DNA of 64,000 nucleotides from Bacillota bacterium (GTDB taxonomy: Bacteria; Bacillota; Halanaerobiia; B1SED10-174), in the NCBI GenBank assembly GCA_007122335.1, contig SKTZ01000029.1, forward strand, positions 5,593 through 69,592. Direction: 5' to 3'. The position numbers and the translations under genes were made by a program. Under the pieces are notes generated by a model. The model had not been told where the DNA came from and did not search any database. It saw only the letters and a program-made list of their open reading frames with translations. Shown here piece after piece: positions 4,210 to 21,090 of this stretch. The first letter of the stretch is position 1. Every line of letters starts with the position of its first letter.

Positions 4210-4504
4210 ATTAAAGAATTTACAGGAAGAATTTAGAGAAGTACTTGAAGAAATAAGGGAGAAAATCAAAAAATGGGATGGGAATTTCATTGAACTGGAA
4301 GAGTTGAAAATAAACCTTCAAAAGGATTTGGAGCAGGTGTCAAAGGAAAAAAAGGGAAGTAATAAAGAAACAATAGAAGGGTTTTATTTGCTAAAAAAGA
4401 GGCTGGAAAAACAGGAAAAAATTGTGCATGGATTGCAAAAAAGATGGGAGGTCATTCTTTTTTTTCAGCTTGTTCTTTTAATTGCCCTTATCTTTTTACT
4501 TTAA
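4202..4504 (+). CDS. hypothetical coiled-coil protein with C-terminal TM anchor
   Basis: ORF track. Charged heptad-like N-terminus. C-terminal hydrophobic stretch ILFFQLVLLIALIFLL. Confidence 0.3.
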   Translation: MDELKNLQEEFREVLEEIREKIKKWDGNFIELEELKINLQKDLEQVSKEKKGSNKETIEGFYLLKKRLEKQEKIVHGLQKRWEVILFFQLVLLIALIFLL

Positions 4505-4529
4505 AATTTTCAGGAAGGATCGATTGTTA

Positions 4530-5717: not shown

Positions 5718-5718
5718 A

Positions 5719-6258
5719 ATGAAAATTTTATTGGTCTATCGGGAGCAAAAACTGGGAGAAGAATTCAATAATAAGTTTTCCTGCGAGACCGGGGTTAAAA
5801 TCTTAAAAGGGGATATTTGCAGTTTGGTTTGCGATGCAATTGCGAGTCCTGGCAATTCTAAGGGAGATATGGGGGGAGGGCTTGATCTGGCTGTTCGGAA
5901 AAGATTGGGGCCGGGAATTGAAGATAAACTAAAGGCAAAAATAAACTCGAGGTTTGCGGGGAGAATTCCAGTGGGAGAAGCTGTTGTTCTACCTACGGGA
6001 GATCCCCTTATTCCCTGGTTTATTTCCGCTCCGACAATGGTTGAGCCCGGGGATATTCGGGGAACCAGAAATGCTGAAAAAGCAATGCTGGCGATTTTGG
6101 GGGAAGCTAAAAAGAATGGGGAAATAAAAAAAATAGCCATCCCCGGACTGGGAACCGGTGTTGGAGGTTTGTCGGCAAAAGGGGCTGTTAGCCAGATGTG
6201 GTCCGGTTATAAAAAATTTAAAAGTTTTGGGGGAGAAAAAAATGCGAATCAGATCTAA
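5719..6258 (+). CDS. macro-domain protein (ADP-ribose binding/processing)
   Basis: Motif ILKGDICSLVCDAIASPGNSKGDMGGGLDLAV... fits the macro-domain Gly-rich signature. Start taken at the internal ATG 5719 of track ORF 5518..6258. Confidence 0.65.
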   Translation: MKILLVYREQKLGEEFNNKFSCETGVKILKGDICSLVCDAIASPGNSKGDMGGGLDLAVRKRLGPGIEDKLKAKINSRFAGRIPVGEAVVLPTGDPLIPWFISAPTMVEPGDIRGTRNAEKAMLAILGEAKKNGEIKKIAIPGLGTGVGGLSAKGAVSQMWSGYKKFKSFGGEKNANQI

Positions 6259-7522
6259 AGCAGCCCGGGTTTTAATGGTCCTGTTCTTTTTTGTTATGAT
6301 TTTCTGCGTATTATCTGAAAACCAGGTCCTGGCCCAGAAGGCGGGAGTTTTGAGTTTTGAGGGAAGACTTCATTCCCGTTATCTTGATCTGGCCGGGAAT
6401 AAACTGGTTGTGATCCTGCTTGACCTGGGGCGTTTGGACCTGGTTAAACCCCGGGAAATGGATAGAATTTTGCAGGATTTTGGGATCCGGTATTACCGGG
6501 ATCTTCAGGCTGAAGAAGTAAAAATGATTGGTGAAAGAGCAGGCATCGACCTTTTATTCGCCGGTTTTATTGAAAACCTTGAGGTTTACTGGGACTCAAA
6601 TCAGAGGCGTTATAAAGCGGAAGTAGAAATAACTGTTAGAATATACAATACTATTTCCGGTGGAGTCATCAGGATTATTAACCAGAGAGGGTCGGCTTCT
6701 CACGGGAATCGTGAAGATGCCCAATTTCAGGCGCTGGAGAATTGTTTTTCCTCGAATTTTATTCGCCAACTTAGGGAAGAATTTTTACTAACCAGCACAA
6801 TAAAAGAAATTGAAAACGATGAGATTTACTTTTTTGGGGGTAGAGATTTAGGAGTTAAAATCGGTTCCCGGTATCAAATCCTGCAAAAGGTGGCAGGGAC
6901 AACCCAGTACAAACAAATTGGTCTCCTGGAAGTAATTAGTGTTGAAAATGATTTTTCCAGGGGCAAAGTTTTATATGCGAGGGAACCTCTGCAGCATGAT
7001 TACTTACTGGAAGAAATGGTTTCCAAATCCAGGTTTAAGTTAAATCTTGGTTACAGTAACATGCCTTTTAAGATGGATGGTAGTTCGGGCCGGTTAAATA
7101 TCCCGGGAATTAGAGTTGGTAACGAGGTTCCTTTCTCCCATTCCAGCAAGGTGCTATTGGAATTTGCCGGAGGAGGAGGGGCATTTATTTTTGATATTGG
7201 CGGAGTTCATGTCCGGGAATTTCCCATAACTCCCGGTAGTTTTTATGGTACGCTTGGAGGTAGTGCAGGTTTTTCCATGGGTATGGTGGAAGGCTGTGGG
7301 GAGGTTCTTGGTTCAGCAGGGATTTTTGGAGAATTACTTGCCGGAGTTAAATACTATCCCCGCCAGGAGCACGGAATGACCTTTTCCCTCGAAGGAGTTG
7401 GTCGTCTGGCTACACCCCTAACGCGCTGGCAGGATATAAATGAGGGGAATGTCTCACCTTGTGGTCCCAACTTGAGAACTTCAGGTTTGGGAATCCGAAT
7501 TTCAGTGGGTTTAGGGTTCTGA
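6242..7522 (+). CDS. exported hypothetical protein with signal peptide and Gly-rich C-terminal region
   Basis: N-terminal signal peptide MRIRSKAARVLMVLFFFVMIFCVLSENQVLAQ. No recognisable catalytic motifs. Confidence 0.45.
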   Translation: MRIRSKAARVLMVLFFFVMIFCVLSENQVLAQKAGVLSFEGRLHSRYLDLAGNKLVVILLDLGRLDLVKPREMDRILQDFGIRYYRDLQAEEVKMIGERAGIDLLFAGFIENLEVYWDSNQRRYKAEVEITVRIYNTISGGVIRIINQRGSASHGNREDAQFQALENCFSSNFIRQLREEFLLTSTIKEIENDEIYFFGGRDLGVKIGSRYQILQKVAGTTQYKQIGLLEVISVENDFSRGKVLYAREPLQHDYLLEEMVSKSRFKLNLGYSNMPFKMDGSSGRLNIPGIRVGNEVPFSHSSKVLLEFAGGGGAFIFDIGGVHVREFPITPGSFYGTLGGSAGFSMGMVEGCGEVLGSAGIFGELLAGVKYYPRQEHGMTFSLEGVGRLATPLTRWQDINEGNVSPCGPNLRTSGLGIRISVGLGF

Positions 7523-7593
7523 AATAGAGGGATTTTAGGAATTGAGTAGAAAAAATTAAGATAGAGAAAGTTTTACTTAAAGGAGGAAATGTT

Positions 7594-8628
7594 TTGTCCA
7601 AACTGCTCGGTCCTCTTACAATAAAAGGTCTTGAACTGCCCAATAAGGTGGTCATGGCTCCGATGTGCATGTACTGTGCTGGAGAAGAAGGACTTGTAAC
7701 TGACTGGCATCTTGCCCACTACGCTGCGCGAGCCATAGGTGGGGTGGGACTAATCATCCAGGAAGCTACTGCAGTTGAAAAAAGGGGAAGGCTGAGTCCC
7801 AACGACCTGGGAATATGGGATGATGACCAGATAAAAGGATTGAAAAAACTGGTTGACCTCGTCCATGAATTTGGGAGCAAAGCTGGAATTCAACTGGGGC
7901 ACGGAGGGAGAAAAGCCCGCCCTGGTAAAGGAGAAATAATTGGGCCAAGTAGCATTGCTTTTTCCGAGGACCATCAGGTTCCCAGGGAGATGGAAGAAAA
8001 AGAAATTAAAGAAGTTGTAAATGCTTTCAAAAAAGCCGCAGAAAGGGCCTGTGCTGCAGGCTATGATATTATCGAGTTGCACGGAGCCCACGGCTATCTT
8101 ATTCACCAGTTTCTTTCCCCTTATTCTAACCAGCGGCAGGATGATTATGGAGGAAGTTTGGATAATCTGCTGCGCTTTCCACTGGAAATAATTCAGGAAG
8201 TAAAAAAAATTTTGCCTTCCGATAAACTTTTAATGTTAAGGATTTCAGCAGTTGAGTATATCCAACAGGGCTATTCCTTTAATGATATGGTAAAAGCCGC
8301 TAAAATTTTCGCTGAGGTGGGAATAGATATCCTCGATGTGAGCACAGGTGGAGCAGGTCCTTCAGCACCCCGGACCTGGCCTGGGTTTCAGGTTCCCTAT
8401 GCCCAAAAAATCAGAGAGGAACTGAATGTTCCGGTTATAGCCTGTGGTCTTATAACCGATCCGGGAATGGCTGAAGAATTGGTTAGTAACAACCGGACCG
8501 ACCTTGTGGCCTTAGGCAGGGCACTTTTGCGTGATCCCAACTGGGTTCTAAATGCAGCTCGGGAACTTGGTATTCCTGGAAAAATTCCTTGGTCCTATGC
8601 TCGTGCCTATCCCGAGGATGTTAGATAA
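7594..8628 (+). CDS. namA: NADH:flavin oxidoreductase, Old Yellow Enzyme family (NamA/YqjM-like)
   Basis: LTIKGLELPNKVVMAPMCMY..HLAHY..LIIQEATAV..HGAHGYLIHQFLSP are OYE hallmarks. TTG start after AGGAGG. Confidence 0.85.
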   Translation: MSKLLGPLTIKGLELPNKVVMAPMCMYCAGEEGLVTDWHLAHYAARAIGGVGLIIQEATAVEKRGRLSPNDLGIWDDDQIKGLKKLVDLVHEFGSKAGIQLGHGGRKARPGKGEIIGPSSIAFSEDHQVPREMEEKEIKEVVNAFKKAAERACAAGYDIIELHGAHGYLIHQFLSPYSNQRQDDYGGSLDNLLRFPLEIIQEVKKILPSDKLLMLRISAVEYIQQGYSFNDMVKAAKIFAEVGIDILDVSTGGAGPSAPRTWPGFQVPYAQKIREELNVPVIACGLITDPGMAEELVSNNRTDLVALGRALLRDPNWVLNAARELGIPGKIPWSYARAYPEDVR

Positions 8629-8854: not shown

Positions 8855-8916
8855 ATTATCTTATTCTTTAGTTTTTTATGTCTTTGATTATAAGTACGTC
8901 CGGAAGGAGGTTTGGG

Positions 8917-9471
8917 ATGGGCAAGATAGATATTGGGGCAAAAATTTTGCAGTACCGCAGGCAAAGGGGCTTTACCATAAAAGAACTGGCTAAAAAAACA
9001 AAACTAACTTCATCAATGTTAAGCCAGATTGAGAGAGGCAATGCCAATCCATCAATTAATTCACTGCGGATTATCGCCAAAGCGCTGGATATTCCCCTAG
9101 TTAATTTTTTTGAGGATGAAGACAATGTTGAAAACCTTGTAGTAAGAGCAAAACAAAGAAAAAAATTAATGATGCCCTGTAATCAGGGATTTGTATATGA
9201 ATCCCTTTCCCCCAATTTAAGCGGAAAAATTCAAATGGTTCTTTTAAGATTAAATCCCGGAGAAGAGACTACAGAAACAATGATGAGTCATGAAGGGGAA
9301 GAAGCCGCGATAGTCCTTGATGGGAAAATTAAAATTTACCTTGAAGACGGTGTTTTTGAACTTGATAGAGGCGATAGCATCAGGATACCTCCCGGAAAAC
9401 CCCATAAATGGGAGAATATTGATACTGCGGTTGTAACAGTAATTTTTGCTATTTCTCCACCGTCATTTTAA
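8917..9471 (+). CDS. XRE-family HTH transcriptional regulator with C-terminal cupin domain
   Basis: N-terminal HTH (ILQYRRQRGFTIKELAKKTKLTSSMLSQIERG) and C-terminal cupin-like beta-barrel region. ATG after GGAGG. Confidence 0.7.
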   Translation: MGKIDIGAKILQYRRQRGFTIKELAKKTKLTSSMLSQIERGNANPSINSLRIIAKALDIPLVNFFEDEDNVENLVVRAKQRKKLMMPCNQGFVYESLSPNLSGKIQMVLLRLNPGEETTETMMSHEGEEAAIVLDGKIKIYLEDGVFELDRGDSIRIPPGKPHKWENIDTAVVTVIFAISPPSF

Positions 9472-9483
9472 TTTTGTCAACGG

Positions 9484-9515
9484 CCCTTGTTCAAGGACAG
9501 GGGCTTTCTTTTTTT
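9484..9515 (+). terminator. rho-independent terminator
   Basis: CCCTTGT-TCAAGG-ACAGGGG hairpin (one G.U pair) followed by CTTTCTTTTTTT. Confidence 0.55.
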
Positions 9516-9621
9516 GCCACAGGAAAAAAAGAGGGGTTTTGGATTAATTGTTTAATAAATTAAATCAAATTAATTATTTTGGACTTAGCGGGAAAATAAA
9601 TTTCTGGCAAGGAGGGTTTAT

Positions 9622-10716
9622 GTGAAAATTAAAGAAGTTCGGGTTGGATACCTTAATTTGGAATTAAAAGAACCCTTTACAATCTCTCTGGGTACTGTAA
9701 CTGAGGCCAAAAATGTGGTGGTTGAAATTGAGACAGATCAAGGGCACCTGGGTTGGGGAGAAGCCGCCCCCATGCCGATTGTAACTGGTGATTTCCAGGA
9801 ATCGGTTGTGCGGGGAATTTTACAATTTCTCCGCCCCCTAATTATAGGGGAGGATCCCAGGGGAATTTCCCGGATTTCGGAGATGCTGGATAAGGTTCTT
9901 TTCGGGAATCCCGGGGCCAAAATTGCTGTTGAGATGGCTCTTTTTGACCTGCTGGGAAAAATTTATGGTCTGCCCCTTTATATCCTCTGGGGTGGCCATG
10001 ACAATTCTTTTGAAAGCGATTATACCATTGGGATTGATGAGCCGGAAGTAATGGCCGCAAAAGTTGACCCTCTTCTGGAGAGAGGATACCGGGCGCTAAA
10101 GGTTAAGGTTGGAAAAAACGGAAAAGAAGATGTGAAAAGGATTGCTGCAGTTGCGGCTGCTGTCGCAGGGAGAGCTTTGATCCGCCTGGATGCCAACCAG
10201 GGTTGGGGAGTTAAGGAAGCTGTGAACACTATCCGGGAGATGGAAAAATTTAATGTTGAACTGGTTGAAGAACCAATTCCCCGGGGCAATATAGAGGGGC
10301 TGGCTTTTATCCGAAACCGGGTAAATGTCCCGATAATGGCAGATGAAACTGTTTTTTCTCCCCAGGATGCTTTAAAGGTTATCAAAGCCGAAGCAGTTGA
10401 TTTAATCAACATCAAGCTGATGAAAGCCGGAGGCTTGATTGCGGCGAGAAAGATTGATGCCCTGGCTTCAACTGCAGGTGTTGAATGTATGGTTGGTTGT
10501 ATGATTGAAAGCAGACTTGCAATGACTGCTGCTGCAAACCTTGTAGCAAGTTCGTCCAATATTACCCGGGCTGATCTTGATGCTCCCGGGTTTTTACGCT
10601 CAGATCCTATCATCGGTGGCGCGGAGGTTAAAGGTGGTTTGTGCACCCTGCCTGATAAGCCTGGCCTGGGTCTGGAACTTAAGAGACAGGAGGTTAAATT
10701 TGTTGATAATGCCTAA
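9622..10716 (+). CDS. mandelate racemase/muconate lactonizing enzyme family protein (dipeptide epimerase-like)
   Basis: Enolase-superfamily pattern (KVKVG...RLDANQGW...VEEP...ADE). GTG start after GGAGGG. Confidence 0.75.
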   Translation: MKIKEVRVGYLNLELKEPFTISLGTVTEAKNVVVEIETDQGHLGWGEAAPMPIVTGDFQESVVRGILQFLRPLIIGEDPRGISRISEMLDKVLFGNPGAKIAVEMALFDLLGKIYGLPLYILWGGHDNSFESDYTIGIDEPEVMAAKVDPLLERGYRALKVKVGKNGKEDVKRIAAVAAAVAGRALIRLDANQGWGVKEAVNTIREMEKFNVELVEEPIPRGNIEGLAFIRNRVNVPIMADETVFSPQDALKVIKAEAVDLINIKLMKAGGLIAARKIDALASTAGVECMVGCMIESRLAMTAAANLVASSSNITRADLDAPGFLRSDPIIGGAEVKGGLCTLPDKPGLGLELKRQEVKFVDNA

Positions 10717-12085
10717 AAATAACTGGAAAAATGAATTTGCAGAATTTGTCCATGAAATAATGGAGGAATTTGAAATTCCGGGTATGTCAGTTGGCCTGTC
10801 CCAGAACGGAGAAGTTATTTATTCAGAGGGTTTTGGTTATGCTGACCTGGAGAACGAAAAGAAAGTCAATCCCGAAACGGTTTTTGGGATTGCTTCAATT
10901 ACCAAGTCTTTTACTGCTCTCGCAATAATGATCCTGGAGAGGGAGGGTAAATTAACAACCGGGGATCCTGTGCTAAAATACTTACCAGATTTTGATGCTG
11001 GAGAGAAAATTACTCCAGCAATCAATATTCACCATTTCCTGACCCATACGGCTGGTTTACCGCCAACTCCTGCTTTAATGTATGCAATGGTTAGGAGTAT
11101 TGAGGGAGATCCAACAGCTGAAAAGCTGAAAGAAGACGGAAAGTGGGAAAAGTGGACGGAAGAACCTCCGATTGAAAGTTATAAAGATCTGCTTGATTTT
11201 TGGGCCCGCAACAAACCTGAGCCCTTGGGTTATCCCGGTGGGCAATTCAGTTACTCCAATGACGCTTATTCCCTTTTGGGGACCATAGTGGAGAGAATAA
11301 GCGGAATAAGTCTTGGCGAATTCATGGAGGAAAAGATATTCAAACCCTGCAACCTGGAAAAAATTACTTTTTCACCGGATGAGCTCAAGAAGTGGCCAAA
11401 TGTGACCCAACTTTATGCGAAAATTGATGAAGAGATTGTTCCTGCCCCCAAGTGGAATCATTCAGAAGCAATGCTTGGAGCGGGGTTTTTAAAAACCCAC
11501 GCCCTTGATCTTTTAAGGTATGGCCAATCATTTCTGGGTTCTGCATATTTGAAAAGAATGGGTTCCCCCTATTTTCCTCTTCCAGATGGCAAGTTTTATG
11601 GATACGGGTTTATGGTGCAACCAGATTACCATGGAAATACTATTATTGAACATGGAGGCAGTCTAAAGGGGATTTCGAGTCATCTGGGAATGGTGCCCGA
11701 GGAAAACCTTGTAGCAACAGTTTTGATTAACCTCGTGGAAATGCCTGTTACCCGGGTTTGGGATGCTCTTGTAAACCTGGCACTGGGTTATTCGATTGAG
11801 GAGGAAAGGTTTTCTTTTTCGGCTCTTGCTTCGTTGCCTGAGAGTTCCAGGGATTGGCCGGGTAAATATGTATCTCCTGAAGGTGCCGAAATTGAAGTAA
11901 CCTCGGAAGAAGAGAAGCTATTTGTGGAATTTAATAATAAAAAGCAGGAACTAACACCGGTGGCCGTGGATAGGGCCAGTTTAATTCGCAGAGGAGAGAA
12001 AAGCATAATCCAATTTTTGCGAGATGGAGAGGGCAAGGTTTCCGGGATACACATGGGCTTGCGAATTATTAAAAAAGTGAATTAG
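10709..12085 (+). CDS. serine hydrolase of the beta-lactamase / penicillin-binding-protein family
   Basis: S-x-x-K motif (ASITKSF) and YSN-like motif (FSYSNDAY). ATG 10709 overlaps the upstream stop. Confidence 0.7.
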   Translation: MPKNNWKNEFAEFVHEIMEEFEIPGMSVGLSQNGEVIYSEGFGYADLENEKKVNPETVFGIASITKSFTALAIMILEREGKLTTGDPVLKYLPDFDAGEKITPAINIHHFLTHTAGLPPTPALMYAMVRSIEGDPTAEKLKEDGKWEKWTEEPPIESYKDLLDFWARNKPEPLGYPGGQFSYSNDAYSLLGTIVERISGISLGEFMEEKIFKPCNLEKITFSPDELKKWPNVTQLYAKIDEEIVPAPKWNHSEAMLGAGFLKTHALDLLRYGQSFLGSAYLKRMGSPYFPLPDGKFYGYGFMVQPDYHGNTIIEHGGSLKGISSHLGMVPEENLVATVLINLVEMPVTRVWDALVNLALGYSIEEERFSFSALASLPESSRDWPGKYVSPEGAEIEVTSEEEKLFVEFNNKKQELTPVAVDRASLIRRGEKSIIQFLRDGEGKVSGIHMGLRIIKKVN

Positions 12086-12091
12086 ATTAAA

Positions 12092-12117
12092 GCCCCGCTG
12101 ATCGCGGGGCTTTTTTT
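12092..12117 (+). terminator. rho-independent terminator
   Basis: GCCCCGC-TGATC-GCGGGGC hairpin followed by TTTTTTT. Confidence 0.8.
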
Positions 12118-12149: not shown

Positions 12150-12178
12150 TTGCAGGAAATTAAAATATGAAGTAGAAT
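12150..12178 (+). promoter_or_regulatory. putative sigma-A promoter of the NAS-like/feoB operon
   Basis: TTGCAG - 17 nt - TAGAAT. Confidence 0.4.
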
Positions 12179-12186
12179 AACTTAAA

Positions 12187-12201
12187 TGAGGATGATTTTC
12201 A
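12187..12201 (+). promoter_or_regulatory. putative Fur-box-like 7-1-7 inverted repeat
   Basis: TGAGGAT-G-ATTTTCA matches TGATAAT-N-ATTATCA at 11 of 14 positions. Sits between the -10 element and the RBS of the first NAS-like gene. Confidence 0.3.
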
Positions 12202-12221
12202 TTTTCAAAGGAGGAAAACCT

Positions 12222-12773
12222 ATGGGTTCACTTCCCAGAGCTGTTCAGTTACTGGAAAAAACCTGGACAAGCAGTCCATTAATGCAAAAAATATATTCGT
12301 CACCCTACCACGTTATTGTCAAAAGAGAGACAGGCCTGGCAGGGATAAGGGCAGGAGATCGGATTTTAAGTCTTGGCTGTGGAGCAATTCCTTTTACAGC
12401 AATTATCCTTAATCAGATTACCGGATGCCCTGTTTCAGCCCTGGATATTGATTTCGCGGCTTTAAATAAAGCCAGGGAGCTCCTGGAGAAAGCTGGTCTT
12501 AAGCAGATCAGGTTAATTGCCGGGAATGGTTGTTCTATTGACCTTTCTGGTTATTCAGTAATAATTACTGCACTTCAGGTTGAACCAAAAGGGGACATAA
12601 TTGACAACTTTCTGAGTAGTGCCAAACCAGGAGCCCGGCTGGTGATGAGGGTGCCCAGGAAAACTTTTGCAAACAGTTATGATCCGATTCCCTCCCAGTA
12701 CAAACCCGAAAAAGAAGTCAGCCAACCAATGATTACTTTTGGCAAATCGGTTTTATTCAGGAAAGCAGGTTAA
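12222..12773 (+). CDS. nicotianamine-synthase-like (NAS-like) SAM-dependent enzyme, short form
   Basis: RILSLGCGAIPFTAIIL...SALDIDFAALNKARELLEKAGL...ITALQVEPK matches the NAS-family pattern (G-x-G-P-x-P-x-T/S..I.L; D-I-D; EPK). Paralogous to 13742..14545. ATG 12222 after AAGGAGG. Confidence 0.5.
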   Translation: MGSLPRAVQLLEKTWTSSPLMQKIYSSPYHVIVKRETGLAGIRAGDRILSLGCGAIPFTAIILNQITGCPVSALDIDFAALNKARELLEKAGLKQIRLIAGNGCSIDLSGYSVIITALQVEPKGDIIDNFLSSAKPGARLVMRVPRKTFANSYDPIPSQYKPEKEVSQPMITFGKSVLFRKAG

Positions 12774-12774
12774 T

Positions 12775-13806
12775 ATGGCTAAAAAAACTGCTCTCGGTAC
12801 TGCAGGGATAATTCTTCTCCTGATTTTTATCTTCAGGGGGGGCTGGACTGATATCGTATCTGCCTGGGGCCAGGTCCCTTACTTCTGGCTTATAATTATG
12901 CTGGGACTCCAGGTTTTCACCCTTCTCTTGGGAGCTTACCAGTGGTACCACCTTTTAAAAAATAGAGAAAAAAGCCTCAGCCTGTTGGAAGTTTTTTCAA
13001 TAAATCTTGTGGGAAGTTTTGTTGAAAGTGTAACACCTTCGGTAAAATTGGGGGGAGAAGGGGCAAAAATATTCCTTCTAAAACAAAAAACCGGGCGACC
13101 TTATGCAGATCTCACAGGAGTTTTACTGGTTCACAAGTTTATTTCCCTGGTTCCTTTTCTGTTAATTCTCGGCCTGGTGTTATTCGCAGGATTATTAAAT
13201 TATTCAATTCCCGGCTTTATATACTGGAGTTTTGGGTCCTTGGTTGTTTTGCTTTTGGTTTTCTCCTGGGTAATTTTCCCGAAATGGGACCAGGAGGTTT
13301 CAGAGATGAGTTTGGGGTTTTTGCGAAAAATCAGAGGTTTCATTTTGCGAATGCTTGGGTCTGTCCGGGAAAGGAGAGAAAAGATATCATTTCTGCAAAT
13401 GTTTGCGATATCTATTTTGATCTGGTCTCTTTACCCGGTTAAGGTATTTATTTTAAGCCGACTTATTGGTATGGAAATTGATTTTCTCCTGGTCAGTGTA
13501 GCTACTTTTATAGCTTATTTGATCAGCATGCTTCCACTTTCCCCTGGAGGAATTGGCACTTATGAAGGAACACTTGCTGTAATTTTAAATTTGAATGGTA
13601 TTCCTTTAGCTGAAGGTCTGGGATTGGTTCTGCTTTCAAGAATAATTACTTTCTGGATCCCGCTTGTCTGGGCTGGTTTAGCAACAGTTATAACTATGAA
13701 GAATTACGAAGAAAAAGGTTTTTTAAAGGGAGGTAAGCAAAATGGCAGAAAAAAATCAGAGCAAATTACTGTATTACAAACTGCTGATAACCATCCAGGG
13801 ATTTGA
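12775..13806 (+). CDS. flippase-like integral membrane protein (UPF0104 / lysyl-PG-synthase TM-domain family)
   Basis: Polytopic membrane protein. The N-terminal region MAKKTALGTAGIILLLIFIFRGGW...YQWYHLLK is typical of this family. Start set at ATG 12775. Confidence 0.5.
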   Translation: MAKKTALGTAGIILLLIFIFRGGWTDIVSAWGQVPYFWLIIMLGLQVFTLLLGAYQWYHLLKNREKSLSLLEVFSINLVGSFVESVTPSVKLGGEGAKIFLLKQKTGRPYADLTGVLLVHKFISLVPFLLILGLVLFAGLLNYSIPGFIYWSFGSLVVLLLVFSWVIFPKWDQEVSEMSLGFLRKIRGFILRMLGSVRERREKISFLQMFAISILIWSLYPVKVFILSRLIGMEIDFLLVSVATFIAYLISMLPLSPGGIGTYEGTLAVILNLNGIPLAEGLGLVLLSRIITFWIPLVWAGLATVITMKNYEEKGFLKGGKQNGRKKSEQITVLQTADNHPGI

Positions 13807-14545
13807 ATTTTTGGGAGCAAGTTTTCCAGCATTCGGAAAAGTGTATCATCGGATTTTTTATCAAAAACTGGTGGAAAAAGAGATGAAAATAGCGGGTATT
13901 GAACCCGGAATGCGGGTGATGCAGGTAGGGTGTGGGCCTTACCCTTTTTCTGCAATTATGCTTGCTGAAAAGGGCTGCAGGGTGGAAGCCATTGATAATG
14001 ATCCGATTGCCATTGAAAAGGCCGGGGAGGTCCTTGAGAAATTAGGCTTAAAAGAGAAGATTGATCTGAAGTTAATTGATGGTTATGAAGTAGAATACGG
14101 TGAATTCGACCGGGTTTTTGTCGCCATGCATGTTGAACCAAAAGACAGGGTGCTGCAAAAGGCAATCAGTGAGATGGGGGGAAAAGGGAAGGTTGTTTTC
14201 CGGAACCCCAGAGGTCTACTCAAGTTATTTTATAGTGGTGTGCAACTCAAGAAACTACCTTCGCCCATTTTTTCCCGGATAAAAGAAAAACTGGGGAAAG
14301 AATCTCTTTGTATTTCAAGTTGTAGGGTTAAAAACCTGACTGAAGCCGGATTTGGCGAAGAGTTGATTATAAAAAACGTTCCTGCCCACCCTTTATTGCC
14401 CGCCCTGGGAATTCGGCCGGGGAAGAAAGTATGCCTGAAAGGTCGACAGTATTTTAATGGCCCCTTTCTGGCTTTAGTAGATGGTCGGAAAGTAGCCCTG
14501 GGTTTTGATCTTGCACAATTGATTGAGGTTCAGGGCGGTGAGTAA
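13742..14545 (+). CDS. NAS-like enzyme fused to a C-terminal FeoA domain
   Basis: The N-terminal 190 aa are paralogous to 12222..12773 (RVMQVGCGPYPFSAIML...EAIDNDPIAIEKAGEVLEKLGL...AMHVEPK). The C-terminal ~70 aa (LTEAGFGEELIIK...LLPALGIRPGKKVCLKGRQYFNGPFLALVDGRKVALGFDLAQLIEV) match the FeoA SH3-like domain. RBS AAGGGAGG. Confidence 0.55.
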   Translation: MAEKNQSKLLYYKLLITIQGFEFLGASFPAFGKVYHRIFYQKLVEKEMKIAGIEPGMRVMQVGCGPYPFSAIMLAEKGCRVEAIDNDPIAIEKAGEVLEKLGLKEKIDLKLIDGYEVEYGEFDRVFVAMHVEPKDRVLQKAISEMGGKGKVVFRNPRGLLKLFYSGVQLKKLPSPIFSRIKEKLGKESLCISSCRVKNLTEAGFGEELIIKNVPAHPLLPALGIRPGKKVCLKGRQYFNGPFLALVDGRKVALGFDLAQLIEVQGGE

Positions 14546-14547
14546 AT

Positions 14548-16320
14548 TTGAGTGGCAATAAGAACCGCAATAGAAAACGACACCACTGTGGTCAAAAACC
14601 GGAAAAGTTCAAACCAGGTGAAAAATCAATTCTTTTAATCGGTCCGCCAAACGTGGGTAAAAGCGTTTTCTTCAATTATTTTACGGGTCTTGAAGCCAGT
14701 GTGGGAAATTATGCGGGGACAACCGTTGAATTTTCCCGGGGCCGGATGGCCATCAGAGGGTTTCAATATGACCTGATTGATGTGCCTGGGACCTACACCC
14801 TTGATGCCACCAATCCTGCAGAAAAAGTAGCCGTGGATATGTTAAAGCAGCGGCCTGCAGGAATTGTCTGTGTCCTGGATGCCAATAGCCTTGAAAGCGG
14901 TCTGTACCTGTTGTATCAGGTTCTGGAATTTAAACTCCCTACAGTGGTTGCTATCAACCGGTCTGACCTGGCCCGCGAAAGGGGATATTTAACAGATTTT
15001 AATACCCTGGAAAGCGAACTGGGAATACCCGTAATCGAAACGGTTGCTTTAACCAGTCAGGGGCTGGAAGCTGTCCGAGAAAAAATTTTTTCGGCCCCGG
15101 TTTCAAGCGAGCCTCTGCCGGAAGTTAGTTCTCAACGCTGGGAACGGGCAGAAAAGATAGCGGGAAAAGCCCAAAAAATTAAAACTAGCAGGTCCGGGGA
15201 AACCAAAAGGCAAAAACTGGACCCCTGGTTAACAAATCCCTGGCCGGGTTTACCCCTTGCAGTTTTAATTTTATCCTTTATTTTTGCCATTATTATTGGT
15301 CTGGGAATGGGTCTCCGGCAATATATTCTCTTGCCTTTTTTCCGGGGGCTGGTTTTTCCTCCCCTTATTCAAGGGGTGGAGGGGATAATTCCTCCCGGAA
15401 TTATTCGGGATATTTTAATTGGAGAGTATGGATTCTTGATTAAAGGGCTGGAATGGCCTCTGGCTCTCGTTTTTCCCTATGTTCTCTCTTTTTATTTTGC
15501 CTTAAGTGTTTTGGAGGATAGTGGATATCTTCCTCGGTTTGGAATTTTGTTGGATGGAATAATGGCAAAAATTGGTCTACGTGGTTCAAACATTATCCCG
15601 CTTCTCCTTGGTTATGGTTGTGCAATACCGGGAATACTGGGAACAAGGGCCCTGGAATCAAAAAAGGAACGGATCATGATTTCCACAATGATTTCTCTCG
15701 CCGTTCCCTGTATTTCTCAATCCGGGGCATTTTTTGCCCTTTTAGCCGAAGTTTCTATCCTTGTTGTGCTGGCTCTTTTTGCTTTCTCCATTCTGGCAAT
15801 GTTTGTTGCTGGCCTGGTCATGGACCGCCTGCTCCCGGGGAAAAGAATGGATACAGTCCTGGAAATTCCAGAATTATTATTTCCCCGGCCCCGCTTCCTC
15901 GGGAGAAAAGTTTTGATGAGGATCAAGGGTTACATTTTTAATGGGGCTGTTCCAATGGTAATGGCGGTGGGAATTGCTTCCCTCTTTTATGAAACTGGAA
16001 TCCTTGTTTTCGTTGGGAGAATTCTCAGTCCCCTGATCGAACAATGGCTACGCCTGCCTCAGGAGGCCGCAGTTCCCCTGGTTTTAGGGATTGTTCGCAG
16101 GGAACTTGCCGTTTTGCCCCTGGTTGAAATGGGTTTATCGCAGACCCAGTTGTTGGTTGGGGCAATTGTAGCCCTGTTTTATGTGCCCTGTATTGCAGTC
16201 CTTGCAACCCTTGCCCGGGAATTCAACCTTAAAATAGCTGCCCTGATCCTACTCGTAACAGTAGCAACTGCTTTTTTAACCGGAGGCCTTTTGGCCAGAA
16301 TTTTGGAATTGATATTTTAA
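14548..16320 (+). CDS. feoB: ferrous iron transport protein B
   Basis: G-domain G1 (GPPNVGKS), G3 (DVPG) and NxxD motifs, followed by the polytopic FeoB membrane domain. TTG start. Confidence 0.85.
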   Translation: MSGNKNRNRKRHHCGQKPEKFKPGEKSILLIGPPNVGKSVFFNYFTGLEASVGNYAGTTVEFSRGRMAIRGFQYDLIDVPGTYTLDATNPAEKVAVDMLKQRPAGIVCVLDANSLESGLYLLYQVLEFKLPTVVAINRSDLARERGYLTDFNTLESELGIPVIETVALTSQGLEAVREKIFSAPVSSEPLPEVSSQRWERAEKIAGKAQKIKTSRSGETKRQKLDPWLTNPWPGLPLAVLILSFIFAIIIGLGMGLRQYILLPFFRGLVFPPLIQGVEGIIPPGIIRDILIGEYGFLIKGLEWPLALVFPYVLSFYFALSVLEDSGYLPRFGILLDGIMAKIGLRGSNIIPLLLGYGCAIPGILGTRALESKKERIMISTMISLAVPCISQSGAFFALLAEVSILVVLALFAFSILAMFVAGLVMDRLLPGKRMDTVLEIPELLFPRPRFLGRKVLMRIKGYIFNGAVPMVMAVGIASLFYETGILVFVGRILSPLIEQWLRLPQEAAVPLVLGIVRRELAVLPLVEMGLSQTQLLVGAIVALFYVPCIAVLATLAREFNLKIAALILLVTVATAFLTGGLLARILELIF

Positions 16321-16345
16321 AAAGCCCCTCGGGGGCTTTTTTTTA
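16315..16345. terminator. bidirectional rho-independent terminator
   Basis: GCCCC-TCG-GGGGC hairpin flanked by A-run and T-run. Serves feoB (+) and the convergent activase operon (-). Confidence 0.75.
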
Positions 16346-17416
16346 TGCAGAATTACATTTTCTCTGCTGGTTCATCAGATCAACGAAGGCTTCCAAACGC
16401 GTTTCAACCCCTGCCTGGCCAGTTTGTTCGTCAATAAAAAAGGTCAGGACAGGGATCCCATTCACCTTGCTCAAATGGGGCATTATGCTTTTGGCGACAA
16501 TTTCAGGAATGCAGGTAAAGGGGGCCAGCTGGACTACACCGTTAAAACCTTTTTCGGCGAAATGGACAACATCACCAACACTGTTCTGCCCGTGTCCGCC
16601 AATGACTAAAGGAAGGTAGGGCTGGGCTCTTTCCTTGGCTTCCCTTTCCCCGTGGGCCACAACATCGTGCCGGGTAAAACTGGTTAGAAAAATGGTCCGC
16701 CGGGGAATTACCCCCATGTGGCCCAGGGTTTCTTCAAGGAAAAAATTCGCTGCTGGTTCAAGCTGGACATATATTTCCCCGATAATTCCTACTTTTAAAG
16801 GCTCAAAATCCAGGTTCTGGGGAACTTTCTCCAGTTCTTTTAATCCTTCCCGGTGGGCTTCTTCAATCTCTTTGGTACTTCGAGCTGCTTCGAGGTAGCC
16901 AATACCTTTTCGAAAAGCCCTGCTGGTATCCCCCCGTTTTAATTCTCTTGCCCTGATTTCGTGGCTTTTTATTTCAATATCGTCCACCGATTTTAATTTG
17001 GCAAAGCCCCTACGAATTGAACGGTAAAAACCTCCCCAGGAACCCCCTTTTTTTAATTTAACTATCTTTTTGAAAAAATCAACAGGTTTTTTTAAAGGGG
17101 GAAAAAAGAAAATGAACTGGGGGTTGTAACCCATTTCCCTCAGGATGCGCCGGTGTAATTCACCGTAAAAGCCAGCCCTGCAGGGTCCATAACCCCCGGC
17201 GCTAACAATTATTTCTACCCCTTTGGGCAGGGTTTCCAGGTAAGTTCCCAAAACCAGCTTGAAAGGAATACAGGCAAATTCAGGAGCATACTGAACTCCC
17301 AGGGAAAGAGTTTTAGGTGTTGGCCGGGGAGGAGCAATAACTTCATGGCCAATTTCCTCCAGCATTGATTGAAATACAATTGTAGATGTTCCCATGTGGG
17401 CGTATGTTACGCGCAT
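16343..17416 (-). CDS. 2-hydroxyacyl-CoA dehydratase-like protein (activase-associated DUF2229/HgdB-like)
   Basis: Family-level resemblance to the non-ATPase part of CoA-substrate-specific enzyme activase proteins. Last gene of the minus-strand three-gene cluster. Confidence 0.5.
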   Translation of the reverse strand: MRVTYAHMGTSTIVFQSMLEEIGHEVIAPPRPTPKTLSLGVQYAPEFACIPFKLVLGTYLETLPKGVEIIVSAGGYGPCRAGFYGELHRRILREMGYNPQFIFFFPPLKKPVDFFKKIVKLKKGGSWGGFYRSIRRGFAKLKSVDDIEIKSHEIRARELKRGDTSRAFRKGIGYLEAARSTKEIEEAHREGLKELEKVPQNLDFEPLKVGIIGEIYVQLEPAANFFLEETLGHMGVIPRRTIFLTSFTRHDVVAHGEREAKERAQPYLPLVIGGHGQNSVGDVVHFAEKGFNGVVQLAPFTCIPEIVAKSIMPHLSKVNGIPVLTFFIDEQTGQAGVETRLEAFVDLMNQQRKCNSA

Positions 17417-17422
17417 TTTTTC

Positions 17423-18397
17423 TCACCCCGTTCTTTTTTCTTCCAGTTGATCCCACTTGCTGCAGCGACTACCCCAGCGGGCTAACAGTTCTCCTTCGGC
17501 CATTATATTAACAATTTCGCAGTTGTTAGGACAATCTTTACACTCAAAACTACTTGCTTCATACTGAAATTCGCTTAATTCAAAACCCAAAAACCTGGTT
17601 GGTTTGTCATTTTGAGCCGTGAGGCGTTTGGCGATTAAAGCGGCTCCAATTGCTCCCATCACATTGAAGTGCTGGGGGATTGTTATTTCTTCCCCCAGTG
17701 CTTTTTCAAAAGAAGCCTTAATTCCGGGGTTGGCTGCAACTCCTCCCTGGAAAACTATCGGGGCTAGGATATCCTTTCCCTTAGCTACATTATTCAGGTA
17801 GTTCCGAACAAGGGCTTCGCTTAGCCCGGCAATAATATCAGGAAAGCTGTGTCCGGTTTGTTGTTTGTGGATCATGTCGGATTCAGCAAAAACAGAGCAG
17901 CGTCCGGCTATGCGGACTGGATGGTTGCTTTTTAAGGCGAGTTCCCCAAATTCCTCTATTGGTATATTCAAACGGGCGGCTTGATGCTCAAGGAAGGAAC
18001 CTGTTCCAGCAGCACAGACTGTATTCATGGCAAAATCAACAACAACACCATTGCGGATAATTATGATCTTGGAGTCCTGCCCCCCAATTTCTAAAACGGT
18101 TTGCACATCGGGAACAACGTGGGTTGCTGCAACAGCGTGGGCCGTAATTTCGTTTTTTACTGTATCTGCACCAGCAATTACTCCCGCCAGGCGCCGGGCA
18201 CTTCCTGTGGTGGCAACCCCTGCAATTTCAACATTTTCCGGGATATCTTTGCCTGTTTTCTGAATACCCTGCTGGACAGCAGTGATAGGTTGCCCTCGTG
18301 TCCTGAGGTAATGAGAAGTCAGGAGATTATCATTTTCATCAATTATTACCAGGTTGGTACTTACAGAACCAACGTCAATTCCCAGGTATCCCTTCAC
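17423..18397 (-). CDS. CoA-substrate-specific enzyme activase, BadF/BadG/BcrA/BcrD-type ATPase (HgdC-like)
   Basis: N-terminus MKGYLGIDVGSVSTNLVII (ASKHA/acetate-kinase-like ATPase), second phosphate motif LEIGGQDSKIIII, and C-terminal cysteines (CKDCPNNCEIV). Confidence 0.75.
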   Translation of the reverse strand: MKGYLGIDVGSVSTNLVIIDENDNLLTSHYLRTRGQPITAVQQGIQKTGKDIPENVEIAGVATTGSARRLAGVIAGADTVKNEITAHAVAATHVVPDVQTVLEIGGQDSKIIIIRNGVVVDFAMNTVCAAGTGSFLEHQAARLNIPIEEFGELALKSNHPVRIAGRCSVFAESDMIHKQQTGHSFPDIIAGLSEALVRNYLNNVAKGKDILAPIVFQGGVAANPGIKASFEKALGEEITIPQHFNVMGAIGAALIAKRLTAQNDKPTRFLGFELSEFQYEASSFECKDCPNNCEIVNIMAEGELLARWGSRCSKWDQLEEKRTG

Positions 18398-19403
18398 TTA
18401 ACTTTTCTCCCTTCGTCTCTTTTTTATGAATAAGCATATCTACAAAGGCTTCAAGACGGGTCAAAATTCCAGCTTCCCCGGAATGTTCATCAATACTAAC
18501 TGTAAGGAAAGGGAGTTGATTGTGGTTTTTGGCCTCAAGTTCAAGTAATTTATTGAGCATGGCGTCAGGTCCACAACCAAAAGCAGTTACATGGATTATA
18601 CCGTCTATGTTTTTTGCTTTTTCAATCAAGTGGAGAGCACTCCATGCAGCCCGGTTGCTGTAATACCAGAAGAAATTCTGAGGTAAGCGCCGGGACATTT
18701 TTCGCAAGCTATTGTTGGCAATGTTTTCGGGGGTGATAATCCCGATACCTATTTTCCGGAGGTTTTGCAGAAGATTTCCACTTATATAGGGGTCAAATAT
18801 TGAATAGGGGTAACCAACTACAGCAAGGGTTATTTTTTCCTTTCCAGGCCGGGGAAATTCAATATCCTTTAAAGGGGTATGTAGTTTTTCCAGAGCTTCG
18901 GAGGGAAAAAACCCCTTGCTTAAAAGATAATGGTATTTTTTGTGGATTTGCCCGGCTTTTAAATAACCCCGGATAATAGTTGTTTTTTTTGCAGAAAATT
19001 TAGTCCCAATTTTATATAGAAAGCCAAAAAGAGAGGCCCGAAACCTTCTGACCCGGAAAGTGGTATTAATAATCGGGGGGAGATCTTCCCGGGAAAACTT
19101 AACCATGTCAGGGAGCCCTAAAAACTTCGGGCAAAAAGTGCTTTTCCCATCCGCGCTCACCAAGCGGGGGATGAAGAGGAAGTCGACCTTGTTTTTCAGG
19201 GCCATGACGTGTCCGTGGTACAATTTTATCGGGACACAGGCGTCATTAACTGTTTCCTGGACACCCAGGTCCAGTATTTTTTTATTTGTAGGAGGGGATA
19301 AAACCACTTCTAAACCGAGTTCTTCTAAGAAGGTTTTCCAGAGAGGGTAAAAAGTATAATAAGCAAGAGTTCTTGGAATTCCTATTTTTACCATGATTTT
19401 CAC
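18375..19403 (-). CDS. activase-associated DUF2229-like protein
   Basis: Sequence pattern (IGIPRTLAYYTFYPLWKTFLEELG...) resembles the uncharacterised domain of acyl-CoA dehydratase activase-related proteins. Overlaps the downstream gene by 23 nt. Confidence 0.5.
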   Translation of the reverse strand: MKIMVKIGIPRTLAYYTFYPLWKTFLEELGLEVVLSPPTNKKILDLGVQETVNDACVPIKLYHGHVMALKNKVDFLFIPRLVSADGKSTFCPKFLGLPDMVKFSREDLPPIINTTFRVRRFRASLFGFLYKIGTKFSAKKTTIIRGYLKAGQIHKKYHYLLSKGFFPSEALEKLHTPLKDIEFPRPGKEKITLAVVGYPYSIFDPYISGNLLQNLRKIGIGIITPENIANNSLRKMSRRLPQNFFWYYSNRAAWSALHLIEKAKNIDGIIHVTAFGCGPDAMLNKLLELEAKNHNQLPFLTVSIDEHSGEAGILTRLEAFVDMLIHKKETKGEKLSEGIPGN

Positions 19404-19579: not shown

Positions 19580-20155
19580 GTGAAAGAAAAGCCAGTATAC
19601 TCAGAAAACCTTAAATTGCCATATGCCATAATAATGAAGCCAATATTTGGGTTATTATGCATGGGTTTTTTCGGGCTTTTCTGGTACCAAAGGTATGCGG
19701 ACCCTCTTCTTCCAGAAGCAATCCCCAACTGGATAAACTTAATATTATCAATTCTTCTGCTCCGATTTTTCTTGCTTGCCTTGAACTTCTCTACTCTTCA
19801 TCTGGAAATTACAAGCCGTGGAATTTTAATCAGCTTTGGCCTGATCAAAAGAAACATTGAGTGGAAATTCATTGAGGACTGCAGGATTTTACAGGGCCGG
19901 TTCCGGGCGATCTGGTGGAGGCTGCCTCTGGACCGGTCGGGAGGGAAGTGGCGCAATGTTTTCCAGATCCCTGGGTATCCCCAGATTTCCCTGAGGGTTA
20001 AAAAGCAGAGGTTTATCGAAGTGATTTTTTCCACCCGGGAACCGGAGAAAGTAAAAAGAATAATTGAATATTTCTTTACAGAATTAACTTCGAACGGGGG
20101 AAGTAATGTCCCGGGGAGTGAAGTAGTTGGTCCCCCAAACTCCGATAATTATTAA
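19580..20155 (+). CDS. hypothetical membrane protein, possibly bacterial PH-domain-like
   Basis: GTG start after AGGAGGAGGG. Two N-terminal TM helices. The 3' end overlaps the convergent EamA gene by ~70 nt, so the true stop is uncertain. Confidence 0.35.
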   Translation: MKEKPVYSENLKLPYAIIMKPIFGLLCMGFFGLFWYQRYADPLLPEAIPNWINLILSILLLRFFLLALNFSTLHLEITSRGILISFGLIKRNIEWKFIEDCRILQGRFRAIWWRLPLDRSGGKWRNVFQIPGYPQISLRVKKQRFIEVIFSTREPEKVKRIIEYFFTELTSNGGSNVPGSEVVGPPNSDNY

Positions 20156-21010
20156 AATAGCTCCAAGAAAGTGAAACCAGTAAAGACTTTCCCCCAGTAT
20201 TACCACTCCAGAAGTTACTGCAATTAGTGTAGTCAGGCTGGGGAAAGCGCTGACCTGGGAAGCGGGTAAACGGGAAAGGGTAAAATTAATTAGAAAAAAT
20301 GCTACCACTGAGGAGAAAATCGCCAGGTAAAGAATGGCGGAAATAACGATTGGTTCTCCTAAAGGGAGCAGAAACTGATCAAGCCTTCCCCTGAAGAAGT
20401 GCATAATCAGACTCAAACCCAAAAAGAAAACCGCCCCAACATTCATCATAATATAGGTTAACTCAATGGGCTTGAAACTTCGGGAAAAATAGCGGGACAG
20501 ATTGCTGAAGGCGCCTCCAGAAAGGGGGGCGCCAAGGAGGATTAAAAGGCCAATAAAATTTCTTCCAATTTCCTGGGTAGCCTGCATATAACCGATCAGA
20601 AGTACCCCTGAAACTGAGAGTATTATGGAAATTACCTGGGGTATAGCAGGCCTTTCCTTGAGGAAAATAGCAGCTATGCTCACGGTGAAAATTGGAATTA
20701 AAGCAACCATCATTCCTCCTTCTGAAGCACTTGTCATCTGGATACCAATAGTTTCGCAAACGAAATAAAGAACTGGCTGGAAAAAAGCTAAGAGCATAAT
20801 TTCGCGCCAGCGCCGCAAGGGAATATTAATTTTTATTACTCCAACCCAGCGCAGGATGTTTACAACGAGAGCCGCCAGGAAAAAGCGGAATCCAAGAAAA
20901 TGAATTGGTTCAATGTGTTCCAAGGCACTGCGGGTAAAAATGAAAGAGAAACCGAAGAAAAAAGCCATTCCAATTGCCGCGGCGATTGCCGGGTAGTCTC
21001 TGTTTGACAT
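20084..21010 (-). CDS. EamA/DMT-superfamily transporter
   Basis: Ten predicted TM segments and tandem EamA-type repeats (GMAFFFGFSFIFTRSALEHIEP). Confidence 0.7.
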   Translation of the reverse strand: MSNRDYPAIAAAIGMAFFFGFSFIFTRSALEHIEPIHFLGFRFFLAALVVNILRWVGVIKINIPLRRWREIMLLAFFQPVLYFVCETIGIQMTSASEGGMMVALIPIFTVSIAAIFLKERPAIPQVISIILSVSGVLLIGYMQATQEIGRNFIGLLILLGAPLSGGAFSNLSRYFSRSFKPIELTYIMMNVGAVFFLGLSLIMHFFRGRLDQFLLPLGEPIVISAILYLAIFSSVVAFFLINFTLSRLPASQVSAFPSLTTLIAVTSGVVILGESLYWFHFLGAILIIIGVWGTNYFTPRDITSPVRS

Positions 21011-21090
21011 TAGCTGGCACCTCACATATACTGGTTAATAATTTGTTTTCAATAATTATGGCAACTTTCCTTTTTTTGGATTGGTTTTAG

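Follow-up and report, generated by a model that had tools for sequence, protein, structure and literature searches.

What are two nicotianamine synthase (NAS)-like genes doing in an operon for ferrous iron uptake? The window, that is, the whole 64,000-nucleotide stretch of a Bacillota contig (SKTZ01000029.1) analysed here, contains four tightly packed genes on the forward strand (12222-16320): a NAS-like gene, a flippase-like gene, a second NAS-like gene fused to FeoA, and feoB. We lean towards the view that these genes encode a Fur-controlled variant of the Feo Fe(II) uptake system that would carry its own chelator-making machinery. The parts belong to known families, and the combination of NAS-type synthases and an MprF-type translocator in a Feo system seems to be new. 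An earlier reading made from the sequence alone (below, the sequence-only reading) had delimited the same four open reading frames (ORFs), and all four are present where it placed them:

12222..12773, + strand: NAS-like S-adenosylmethionine (SAM) enzyme 1, the stand-alone paralogue; 183 residues, ATG after an AGGAGG ribosome-binding site
12775..13806, + strand: MprF-type flippase-like polytopic membrane protein; 343 residues, PF03706 / TIGR00374
13742..14545, + strand: NAS-like 2::FeoA fusion gene, one continuous ORF
13742..14326, + strand: NAS-like SAM enzyme domain of the fusion (residues 1-195)
14333..14533, + strand: FeoA (SH3-like) domain of the fusion (residues 198-264); PF04023
14548..16320, + strand: feoB, Fe(II) transporter; 590 residues, TIGR00437

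The FeoA fusion and its FeoB

The C-terminal segment of the second NAS-like protein matches the FeoA family with 38.8 bits (cut-off 23, E 1e-9), and the match extends over positions 2-73 of the 74 in the profile. The family profile also matches the solved FeoA structures 3e19, 2k5i, 3mhx and 7r7b, and in the same comparison with the PDB no DtxR-type regulator appeared at E <=0.01. The domain is 47% identical to the free-standing FeoA that lies directly before feoB in Fuchsiella alkaliacetigena, and in relatives with split genes the free FeoA takes the same position before feoB. Thus, what the sequence-only reading had said of this end of the operon holds: the segment is FeoA, feoB (described as translationally coupled) starts 2 nucleotides after the fusion stop, and no free-standing feoA is present, since tblastn found neither a second FeoA nor a second FeoB in the 64 kb. 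A sequencing frameshift that joined two separate genes is rejected because the ORF is continuous and because FeoA is also carried by 54 of the 150 best family clusters; the fusion is retained in relatives from 85% down to 25% identity and is genuine.

FeoB itself exceeds the cut-off of TIGR00437 (320.4 bits against 315.65) and contains the Pfam domains FeoB_N (E 2e-45), Gate (twice, E 1e-25) and FeoB_C (E 2e-7). The FeoB of the window shares 47-59% identity with the FeoBs of comparable loci in archaea and in further phyla. FeoBs outside such loci score lower, with 30% for the second FeoB of Fuchsiella and 34% for a Planctomycetia FeoB that has a plain FeoA. These identities suggest a dedicated FeoB subfamily that may be spreading together with the NAS-like genes.

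Classification of the NAS-like enzymes

With 33% identity (E 1e-25), the NAS-like proteins are paralogues of each other, and both match the Pfam NAS family (PF03059) at a borderline level (27.1 and 29.6 bits, cut-off 27.1). The matches span approximately positions 100-245 of the 276 in the Pfam profile, and residues 91-268 of the thermonicotianamine synthase of Methanothermobacter thermautotrophicus (MtNAS). None of the curated NCBIfam models covers short NAS-like proteins; the best NCBIfam match of NAS-like 1 is the CntL equivalog, far under its cut-off, and the module scores 27.5 bits against this equivalog, whose cut-off is 350. A phmmer search against all PDB chains places MtNAS first (E 4e-9), with the first methyltransferase at 2e-4. 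When a profile of 46 fusion proteins is compared with the PDB, MtNAS reaches 82 bits (3e-22) and CntL 62 bits (4e-16), as against 36 bits (3e-8) for the best solved methyltransferase, which puts NAS/CntL ahead by 26-46 bits. MtNAS is aligned over 193 residues, including N-terminal helices, and the methyltransferases over only 140-169. MtNAS is again the top match of an independent family member, and the Pfam NAS family is matched by 129 of the 150 best family representatives.

The residues involved in NAS catalysis can be located in both proteins. Y40 of NAS-like 2 and Y29 of NAS-like 1 align with the catalytic Y107 of MtNAS (Y106 in Arabidopsis NAS1, AtNAS1), and further residues of the window pair with MtNAS as follows: Y35 with Y102, E47 with E114, R154 with R221, and Y164 with Y231 (YR...Y motif). 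The EPK motif after strand 4 pairs with E199-P200-K201 of MtNAS, and the SAM motif of the family is the NAS-type GxGPxPxT. In addition, E22, which corresponds to E12 of NAS-like 1, pairs with the Glu of the CntL stretch 'VKQVE'. This Glu has chain position 92 and would be E84 given a tag of 8 residues on the chain; the chain of the CntL E84Q mutant loses exactly that stretch of the alignment. The alignment with MtNAS stops short of E81, and the equivalence of E22 with MtNAS E81 (AtNAS1 E77) rests on the CntL alignment. Among the 150 best representatives E22, Y35, Y40, E47, GxGxxPxT, D85 and R154 are at least 90% conserved, and NAS-like 1 retains E12, Y25, Y29, E36, GxGxxPxT, D75 and R143. The Glu and Tyr of NAS/CntL enzymes sit upstream of the SAM motif, where generic methyltransferases have no counterpart, and the equivalent Glu and Tyr are essential in AtNAS1 (PMC10248798).

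The window proteins have approximately 60 residues (three predicted helices) before the SAM motif, as against approximately 128 in MtNAS. By these comparisons both ORFs are assigned to a truncated subfamily of the NAS/CntL superfamily and not to the ordinary methyltransferases; the sequence-only reading had called them NAS-like and named an unrelated methyltransferase family as the alternative, and the profile searches favour its first choice.

The flippase-like membrane protein

The product of the second gene matches LPG_synthase_TM (PF03706) over profile positions 3-301 of 302 (E 8e-46) and the 'flippase-like domain' model TIGR00374 with 101.9 bits (cut-off 43.2). The protein does not reach the MprF equivalog (35.8 bits against 600) and is without the aminoacyl-phosphatidylglycerol synthase domain. 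The flippase assignment rests on Pfam and NCBIfam; when a model of a triple fusion (flippase::NAS::FeoA) was searched with Foldseek, MprF was not among the top 50 matches and Rossmann-fold matches filled the list. The models have predicted template-modelling (pTM) scores of 0.68-0.71 and a low-confidence interdomain linker, and the relative placement of their domains is not reliable.

Conservation and diversity of the module

The NAS-like family is much larger than a word-indexed homologue search indicates: such a search, which badly under-represents the family, returned 6 relatives only, all fused to FeoA. An exhaustive HMMER search covering 1.84 billion cluster representatives gave 2966 matches at E <=1e-3 and 145 at <=1e-30. 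LPG_synthase_TM is present in 10 of the best 150 clusters. The fusions include flippase::NAS::FeoA (P0012, P0029, P0041, P0053, P0060), flippase::NAS (P0088, P0110, P0111, P0128) and NAS::NAS::FeoA (P0007), such that each adjacent product pair among the first three genes of the window occurs elsewhere as one polypeptide. These pairwise fusions are strong evidence that the first three products act as one membrane-associated assembly, and they strengthen the physical link between NAS and Feo that the sequence-only reading had drawn from the fusion in the window.

A scan of one genome per species with a FeoA-domain pattern found 20 loci with NAS-like genes (L008-L027), and two more (L003 and L006) bring the number to 22; in all 22, a FeoA domain and then feoB lie directly downstream. 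When the scan was repeated on metagenomes with a pattern for the NAS domain only, FeoA and feoB were adjacent in 8 of the 8 loci with enough flanking sequence. The gene orders of the module can be classified as follows:

NAS1-flippase-NAS2::FeoA-feoB: window, L006, L010, L019, L085
Window order, NAS2 and FeoA as separate ORFs: L021
Window order without the flippase: L008, L009, L011
Divergent flippase and NAS1 opposite NAS2::FeoA-feoB: archaeal L003, L012, L014, L015; L013 similar, with NAS1 farther off
One NAS-like gene and FeoA, then feoB, no flippase: L016-L018, L020, L022, L023, L025
Fully split NAS1-flippase-FeoA-feoB: L024 (Fuchsiella alkaliacetigena), L026, L027
Permuted split NAS1-flippase-FeoA-NAS2-feoB: L079-L082
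NAS1-[flippase::NAS2::FeoA]-feoB: L072
[NAS1::NAS2::FeoA]-feoB: L073

The loci L016-L018, L020, L022 and L023 belong to Desulfonatronospira and related Desulfovibrionales, and in L016 and L017 FeoA is a separate ORF. The flippase-like gene and the second NAS-like paralogue are frequent, not universal, in the module. ORF clustering across 23 loci found only NAS-like, flippase-like, FeoA, FeoB and Fur proteins as conserved neighbours; the neighbour clusters were mostly shadow ORFs inside feoB, and Fur alone was left after filtering. No CntM or CntK is conserved near the module in these 23 loci, in agreement with the sequence-only reading, which had seen neither gene in the window.

Operon boundaries and probable Fur-type regulation

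Three features of the upstream region define the start of the operon:

12089..12113, + strand: intrinsic terminator of the upstream beta-lactamase-family gene; 10-bp stem with 7 GC pairs, then a T run
12150..12178, + strand: probable sigma-70-type promoter; TTGCAG (12150-12155), 17-nucleotide spacer, TAGAAT (12173-12178)
12185..12220, + strand: invariant 36-nucleotide leader block; candidate composite Fur-type operator and ribosome-binding site GGAGG (12210-12214)

The terminator is kept in orthologous leaders and marks the 5' boundary, and the next gene 3' of feoB is convergent. Within the operon, the longest ORF of the flippase-like gene begins at TTG 12739; the likely start is ATG 12775, two bases past the stop of NAS-like 1, because it gives the 343 residues called in a 99%-identical relative (L071). 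The flippase-like and NAS-like 2 genes overlap by 65 nucleotides. As the genes abut or overlap between a strong terminator upstream and a convergent gene downstream, the sequence assigns all four to a single transcription unit.

The promoter is a probable one that was read from the sequence; the automatic scan did not list it. Its elements TTGCAGGA and AGAAT are conserved in relatives at 75-85% identity, with variable flanks. The leader block is identical in the window, L006, L001 and L002 despite diverged flanks, and also in L009 (a 60% relative), and its conservation thus spans relatives at 60-85% protein identity. An alternative ATG of NAS-like 1 at 12186 falls within the conserved candidate operator. 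A known RNA element was also considered for this conserved leader and is rejected, since the leader matches no Rfam family.

The 19-mer Fur consensus of Escherichia coli has no match in the window at <=3 mismatches, after which a 7-1-7 consensus was used for the operator scans. This consensus identifies two overlapping sites in the leader block, TGAGGATGATTTTCA at 12187 and TGATTTTCATTTTCA at 12193, which together span 12187-12207, are offset by 6 nucleotides and score 11/14 each; only 12 sites in the entire 64 kb score 11/14 or higher. The classical 19-bp Fur box is itself two 7-1-7 repeats offset by 6 nucleotides. The Fur-box-like site noted in the sequence-only reading is therefore real, given the two 11/14 sites in an invariant block, but weaker than was implied, given the missing 19-mer match.

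Comparable sites are found at other loci. In L009, L010, L017, L018, L025, L026 and L027, sites scoring 11-12/14 (TGAGAAT-N-ATTCTCA-like) lie no more than 250 nucleotides before the module or its fur gene, and 10/14 sites lie upstream in four further loci; the same scan found no comparable Fur-type site upstream of the archaeal loci. In 7 loci, that of the cultured Fuchsiella alkaliacetigena among them, a fur-family gene directly precedes the module; tblastn found no Fur gene in the 64-kb window. Judging from these candidate operators and fur genes, the operon is likely controlled by a metal sensor of the Fur family, whichever metal that sensor may recognize.

Comparison with known systems

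The best match of the NAS-like proteins in both sequence and fold is MtNAS (PDB 3FPE/3FPG/3O31), with which they share the Rossmann core, the GxGPxPxT SAM motif, the catalytic Tyr, the EPK motif and the YR...Y motif. MtNAS, however, is a protein of 298 residues with the longer N-terminal part described above, acts as one iterating enzyme where the module usually has two paralogues, and is without a fused FeoA or flippase-like domain. The cnt operons for staphylopine, pseudopaline and yersinopine combine a NAS-like aminobutyrate transferase with membrane transporters in a metal-regulated operon, a combination that the module probably shares. Unlike them, the module is without the CntM opine dehydrogenase, the CntK racemase and the ATP-binding cassette (ABC) or TonB importer of the complex; its transporter is FeoB, and its putative translocator belongs to PF03706 and is not an exporter of the major facilitator superfamily (MFS) or the EamA family.

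As in canonical FeoA-FeoB(-FeoC) systems, a FeoA SH3-like domain immediately precedes a coupled feoB with full G-domain, Gate and FeoB_C, but here FeoA is the C-terminal domain of an enzyme. A survey of Feo architectures lists only FeoA-FeoB fusions, doubled FeoA and an unspecified 'FeoA has an additional domain' (PMC8749426). The fourth system with which the module can be compared is MprF, in which the synthase domain makes a lipid that the membrane domain then translocates (PMC8131360, PMC11980842). In family members such as P0012 and P0110, the PF03706 domain is N-terminal to a cytoplasmic enzyme, which reproduces this flippase-then-synthase layout. The differences are that the partner in the module is a SAM-dependent NAS-like domain, not an aminoacyl-tRNA-dependent synthase, and that in the window flippase and enzyme are separate, overlapping genes.

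The sequence-only reading was not aware of a description of this arrangement, and in the searchable literature we too found no published one. No system joining FeoA and nicotianamine synthase was found there, no prokaryotic link between nicotianamine and FeoB is apparent from titles and abstracts, and no source was found that names the short NAS-like proteins.

A proposed mechanism and its alternatives

In the mechanism that we favour, SAM would be the substrate of both NAS-like enzymes. Most likely they would attach its aminobutyrate (3-amino-3-carboxypropyl) moiety to an amine in one or two rounds, and so assemble, on the inner side of the membrane, a polyamino-carboxylate chelating group of the nicotianamine type. 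The FeoA domain of NAS-like 2 would dock on the cytoplasmic part of FeoB and tie synthesis to the importer, and the MprF-type flippase-like protein would move the product to the outer face, where it would capture scarce Fe(II) for FeoB. The acceptor could be a free amino acid or the amine of a membrane-lipid head group. The acceptor of all NAS/CntL enzymes characterised to date is, to our knowledge, a free amino acid. Since CntM is lacking, we would expect a product of the nicotianamine or thermonicotianamine type and no opine. What is seen directly are the identities of the domains, the conservation of catalytic residues, the fusions, the synteny and the fur genes with the candidate operators; the chemistry of transfer, the nature of the product, the direction in which it moves and the passing of Fe(II) to FeoB are inferred from these.

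Several points weigh against this mechanism. The chemistry of the whole NAS-like family is a prediction, and in single-sequence Pfam searches NAS ties with Methyltransf_31 (26.6 and 29.5 bits); the deeper tests (phmmer, family profile and catalytic residues) resolve this tie in favour of NAS. The enzymes lack the complete core-NAS architecture of approximately 280 residues: approximately 65 residues are missing at the N-terminus, which removes about half of the helical domain that encloses the reaction chamber in MtNAS. With this lid lost, the acceptor, and even the transferred group, could differ. The characterised PF03706 proteins all move lipids and not soluble molecules (NCBIfam names; PMC8131360, PMC11980842), and the flippase-like gene is absent in approximately 40% of loci, which means that translocation cannot be essential everywhere. 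A [flippase::NAS2]-NAS1 unit occurs without FeoA or FeoB in the contig in L075 (5001-7341) and L076 (292-2641), and the synthase-flippase part can thus stand alone. Among the conserved neighbours in the 23 clustered loci there is no importer for a complex of metal and chelator. Finally, the genome survey used a FeoA-domain pattern and is therefore biased to Feo-linked members and partly circular, and the NAS-only scan yielded few loci that are closely related to each other.

Some of these points suggest a more specific version of the mechanism. A lipid-anchored chelator is a serious possibility because PF03706 proteins move lipids, the fusions are MprF-like, the lid is lost and an importer for the complex is lacking. 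By analogy with MprF, the NAS-like enzymes might build a chelating head group on the amine of a membrane lipid (for example phosphatidylethanolamine or phosphatidylserine, with +101.05 Da per aminocarboxypropyl unit), the MprF-type partner might flip this lipid outward, and the anchored chelator, produced beside FeoB by way of the FeoA tether, might concentrate scarce Fe(II) at the importer mouth. We put this version forward tentatively, and hold it with less assurance than the general mechanism. The sequence-only reading had instead proposed a soluble thermonicotianamine-like product and an exporter role for the membrane protein. Neither is established: the N-terminal lid is missing and the flippase::enzyme fusions copy the MprF layout, and the PF03706 proteins that have been characterised carry lipids.

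An unlikely alternative keeps the soluble product in the cytoplasm, where a nicotianamine-like molecule would take over Fe(II) leaving FeoB and serve as its chaperone or buffer in an interior that is alkaline and rich in sulfide and carbonate. FeoA would then be a tether at the channel exit, and the flippase would be optional or have a separate role. The constant core of the module (NAS-like, FeoA and FeoB) and the cytoplasmic nature of the FeoA and NAS-like domains are consistent with such a buffer, as are the loci that are missing the flippase-like gene (the Desulfonatronospira-type loci, L008, L009 and L011). Nicotianamine is an intracellular Fe(II) ligand in plants, and its binding of Fe(II) is best at neutral to alkaline pH, which also counts in favour of this alternative. 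However, the flippase-like domain is fused to a NAS-like domain in at least 10 of the 150 clusters and its gene lies between both NAS-like genes in many loci, which is hard to reconcile with a product that stays inside; in addition, the flippase::NAS plus NAS unit exists without Feo.

It is more doubtful still that the NAS-like proteins are ordinary class I SAM-dependent methyltransferases, acting for example on phospholipids or small molecules, with a link to Feo that has nothing to do with a chelator. Beyond the Pfam tie, the family profile puts NAS/CntL above every solved methyltransferase, the at least 90% conserved catalytic Glu and Tyr have no generic methyltransferase counterpart, and both the NAS-type SAM motif and the longer alignment with MtNAS argue for the NAS assignment. 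Least probable is that the NAS-like proteins, docked through FeoA, attach an aminocarboxypropyl or methyl group to FeoB or another membrane protein and so regulate transport. In favour of this reading, an active site that has lost its N-terminal lid could admit large substrates, modifying enzymes are commonly fused to a domain that targets them, and enzyme and FeoB are always adjacent. It leaves the lipid-flippase-like fusions and the Feo-less flippase::NAS plus NAS unit unexplained and does not account for the usual presence of two paralogous enzymes, and we know of no NAS-family enzyme that acts on proteins.

Distribution and genomic surroundings

The closest relatives of the window are metagenome-assembled genomes (MAGs) of Halobacteroidaceae. 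Other carriers of the module include Syntrophomonadaceae, Desulfonatronospira, Desulfohalobiaceae, Thermotogaceae and MAGs of Methanomassiliicoccales/Thermoplasmata. A cultured carrier, Fuchsiella alkaliacetigena Z-7100 (L024, NZ_JALKBZ010000031.1), is a haloalkaliphilic acetogen in which fur, NAS-like, flippase-like, free FeoA and feoB genes occupy 3669-7792, with the second feoB at 10017-11696, approximately 2 kb past the feoB of the module. Most carriers bear the sample codes B1Sed10, T1Sed10 or CSSed of hypersaline soda-lake sediment metagenomes (PMC6146748, PMC6704655), a bias that may partly reflect scans reaching mainly relatives of the query. The metagenome contig SL_8KL_010_SEDDRAFT_10013953 (L084, 3-2173) encodes the complete FeoB and the end of the fusion protein with 99-100% identity to those of the window. 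This points to the sample, or to a nearly clonal population, as the source of the window.

Several genes around the operon were considered as further parts of the pathway. Upstream (8878-12085, + strand) lie genes for a regulator with helix-turn-helix (HTH) and cupin domains, an MR_MLE racemase/epimerase-like protein and a beta-lactamase-family protein, as labelled by Pfam in orthologous loci; an MR_MLE epimerase-like gene beside a NAS-like operon recalls CntK. Downstream, approximately 4 kb past feoB (20084-21025, - strand), is a gene for an EamA-family transporter that is kept in a 75% relative. The pseudopaline exporter CntI belongs to the EamA family. The MR_MLE, beta-lactamase-family and EamA genes are rejected as pathway parts because they are conserved only in close Halobacteroidaceae relatives, and the upstream genes are also cut off from the operon by the strong terminator. 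By the same conservation pattern, the EamA gene is probably unrelated to the module.

Between feoB and the EamA gene, and convergent with feoB, three genes (16343-19403, - strand) encode a BcrAD_BadFG-type ATPase and DUF2229/HGD-D proteins (Pfam labels again from orthologous loci). This cluster resembles an activase system of 2-hydroxyacyl-CoA dehydratases or benzoyl-CoA reductases and is syntenic in close relatives only. Farther downstream, a full-length Ornate Large Extremophilic (OLE) RNA is found at 57239-57833 (+ strand; 495.7 bits, Rfam RF01071). OLE is a large non-coding RNA of anaerobic extremophilic Bacillota, which fits a Halobacteroidaceae origin of the window. The GC skew is positive in nearly all 2-kb bins and falls at 16-20 kb, in a segment of minus-strand genes. 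This skew and the predominance of plus-strand genes around the locus suggest that the window is on a leading strand. No origin or terminus signal is visible in the GC skew from 1 to 64000.

Biological significance

The role of FeoA, and the way in which FeoB captures and delivers Fe(II), are long-standing questions, into which a conserved natural fusion of FeoA with an enzyme gives a direct way. The module also bears on the role of nicotianamine-type molecules beyond plants and a few pathogens. If the lipid reading is true, the module would represent a new lipid class or head group, a new reaction type of the NAS family and a new use of the MprF flippase-synthase design; it would also be the first enzymatic function attached to FeoA and, as a whole, a categorically new system. 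Because Fuchsiella alkaliacetigena Z-7100 is in culture and carries a split operon with its own fur gene, it is a practical experimental organism in which these predictions are testable now.

Our analysis reveals a short NAS-like subfamily of at least 145 clusters at 50% identity, unnoticed before, that is tied to ferrous iron uptake in strict anaerobes. Most of its identifiable carriers come from soda-lake sediments that are alkaline and sulfidic, and in which we would expect dissolved iron to be very scarce.

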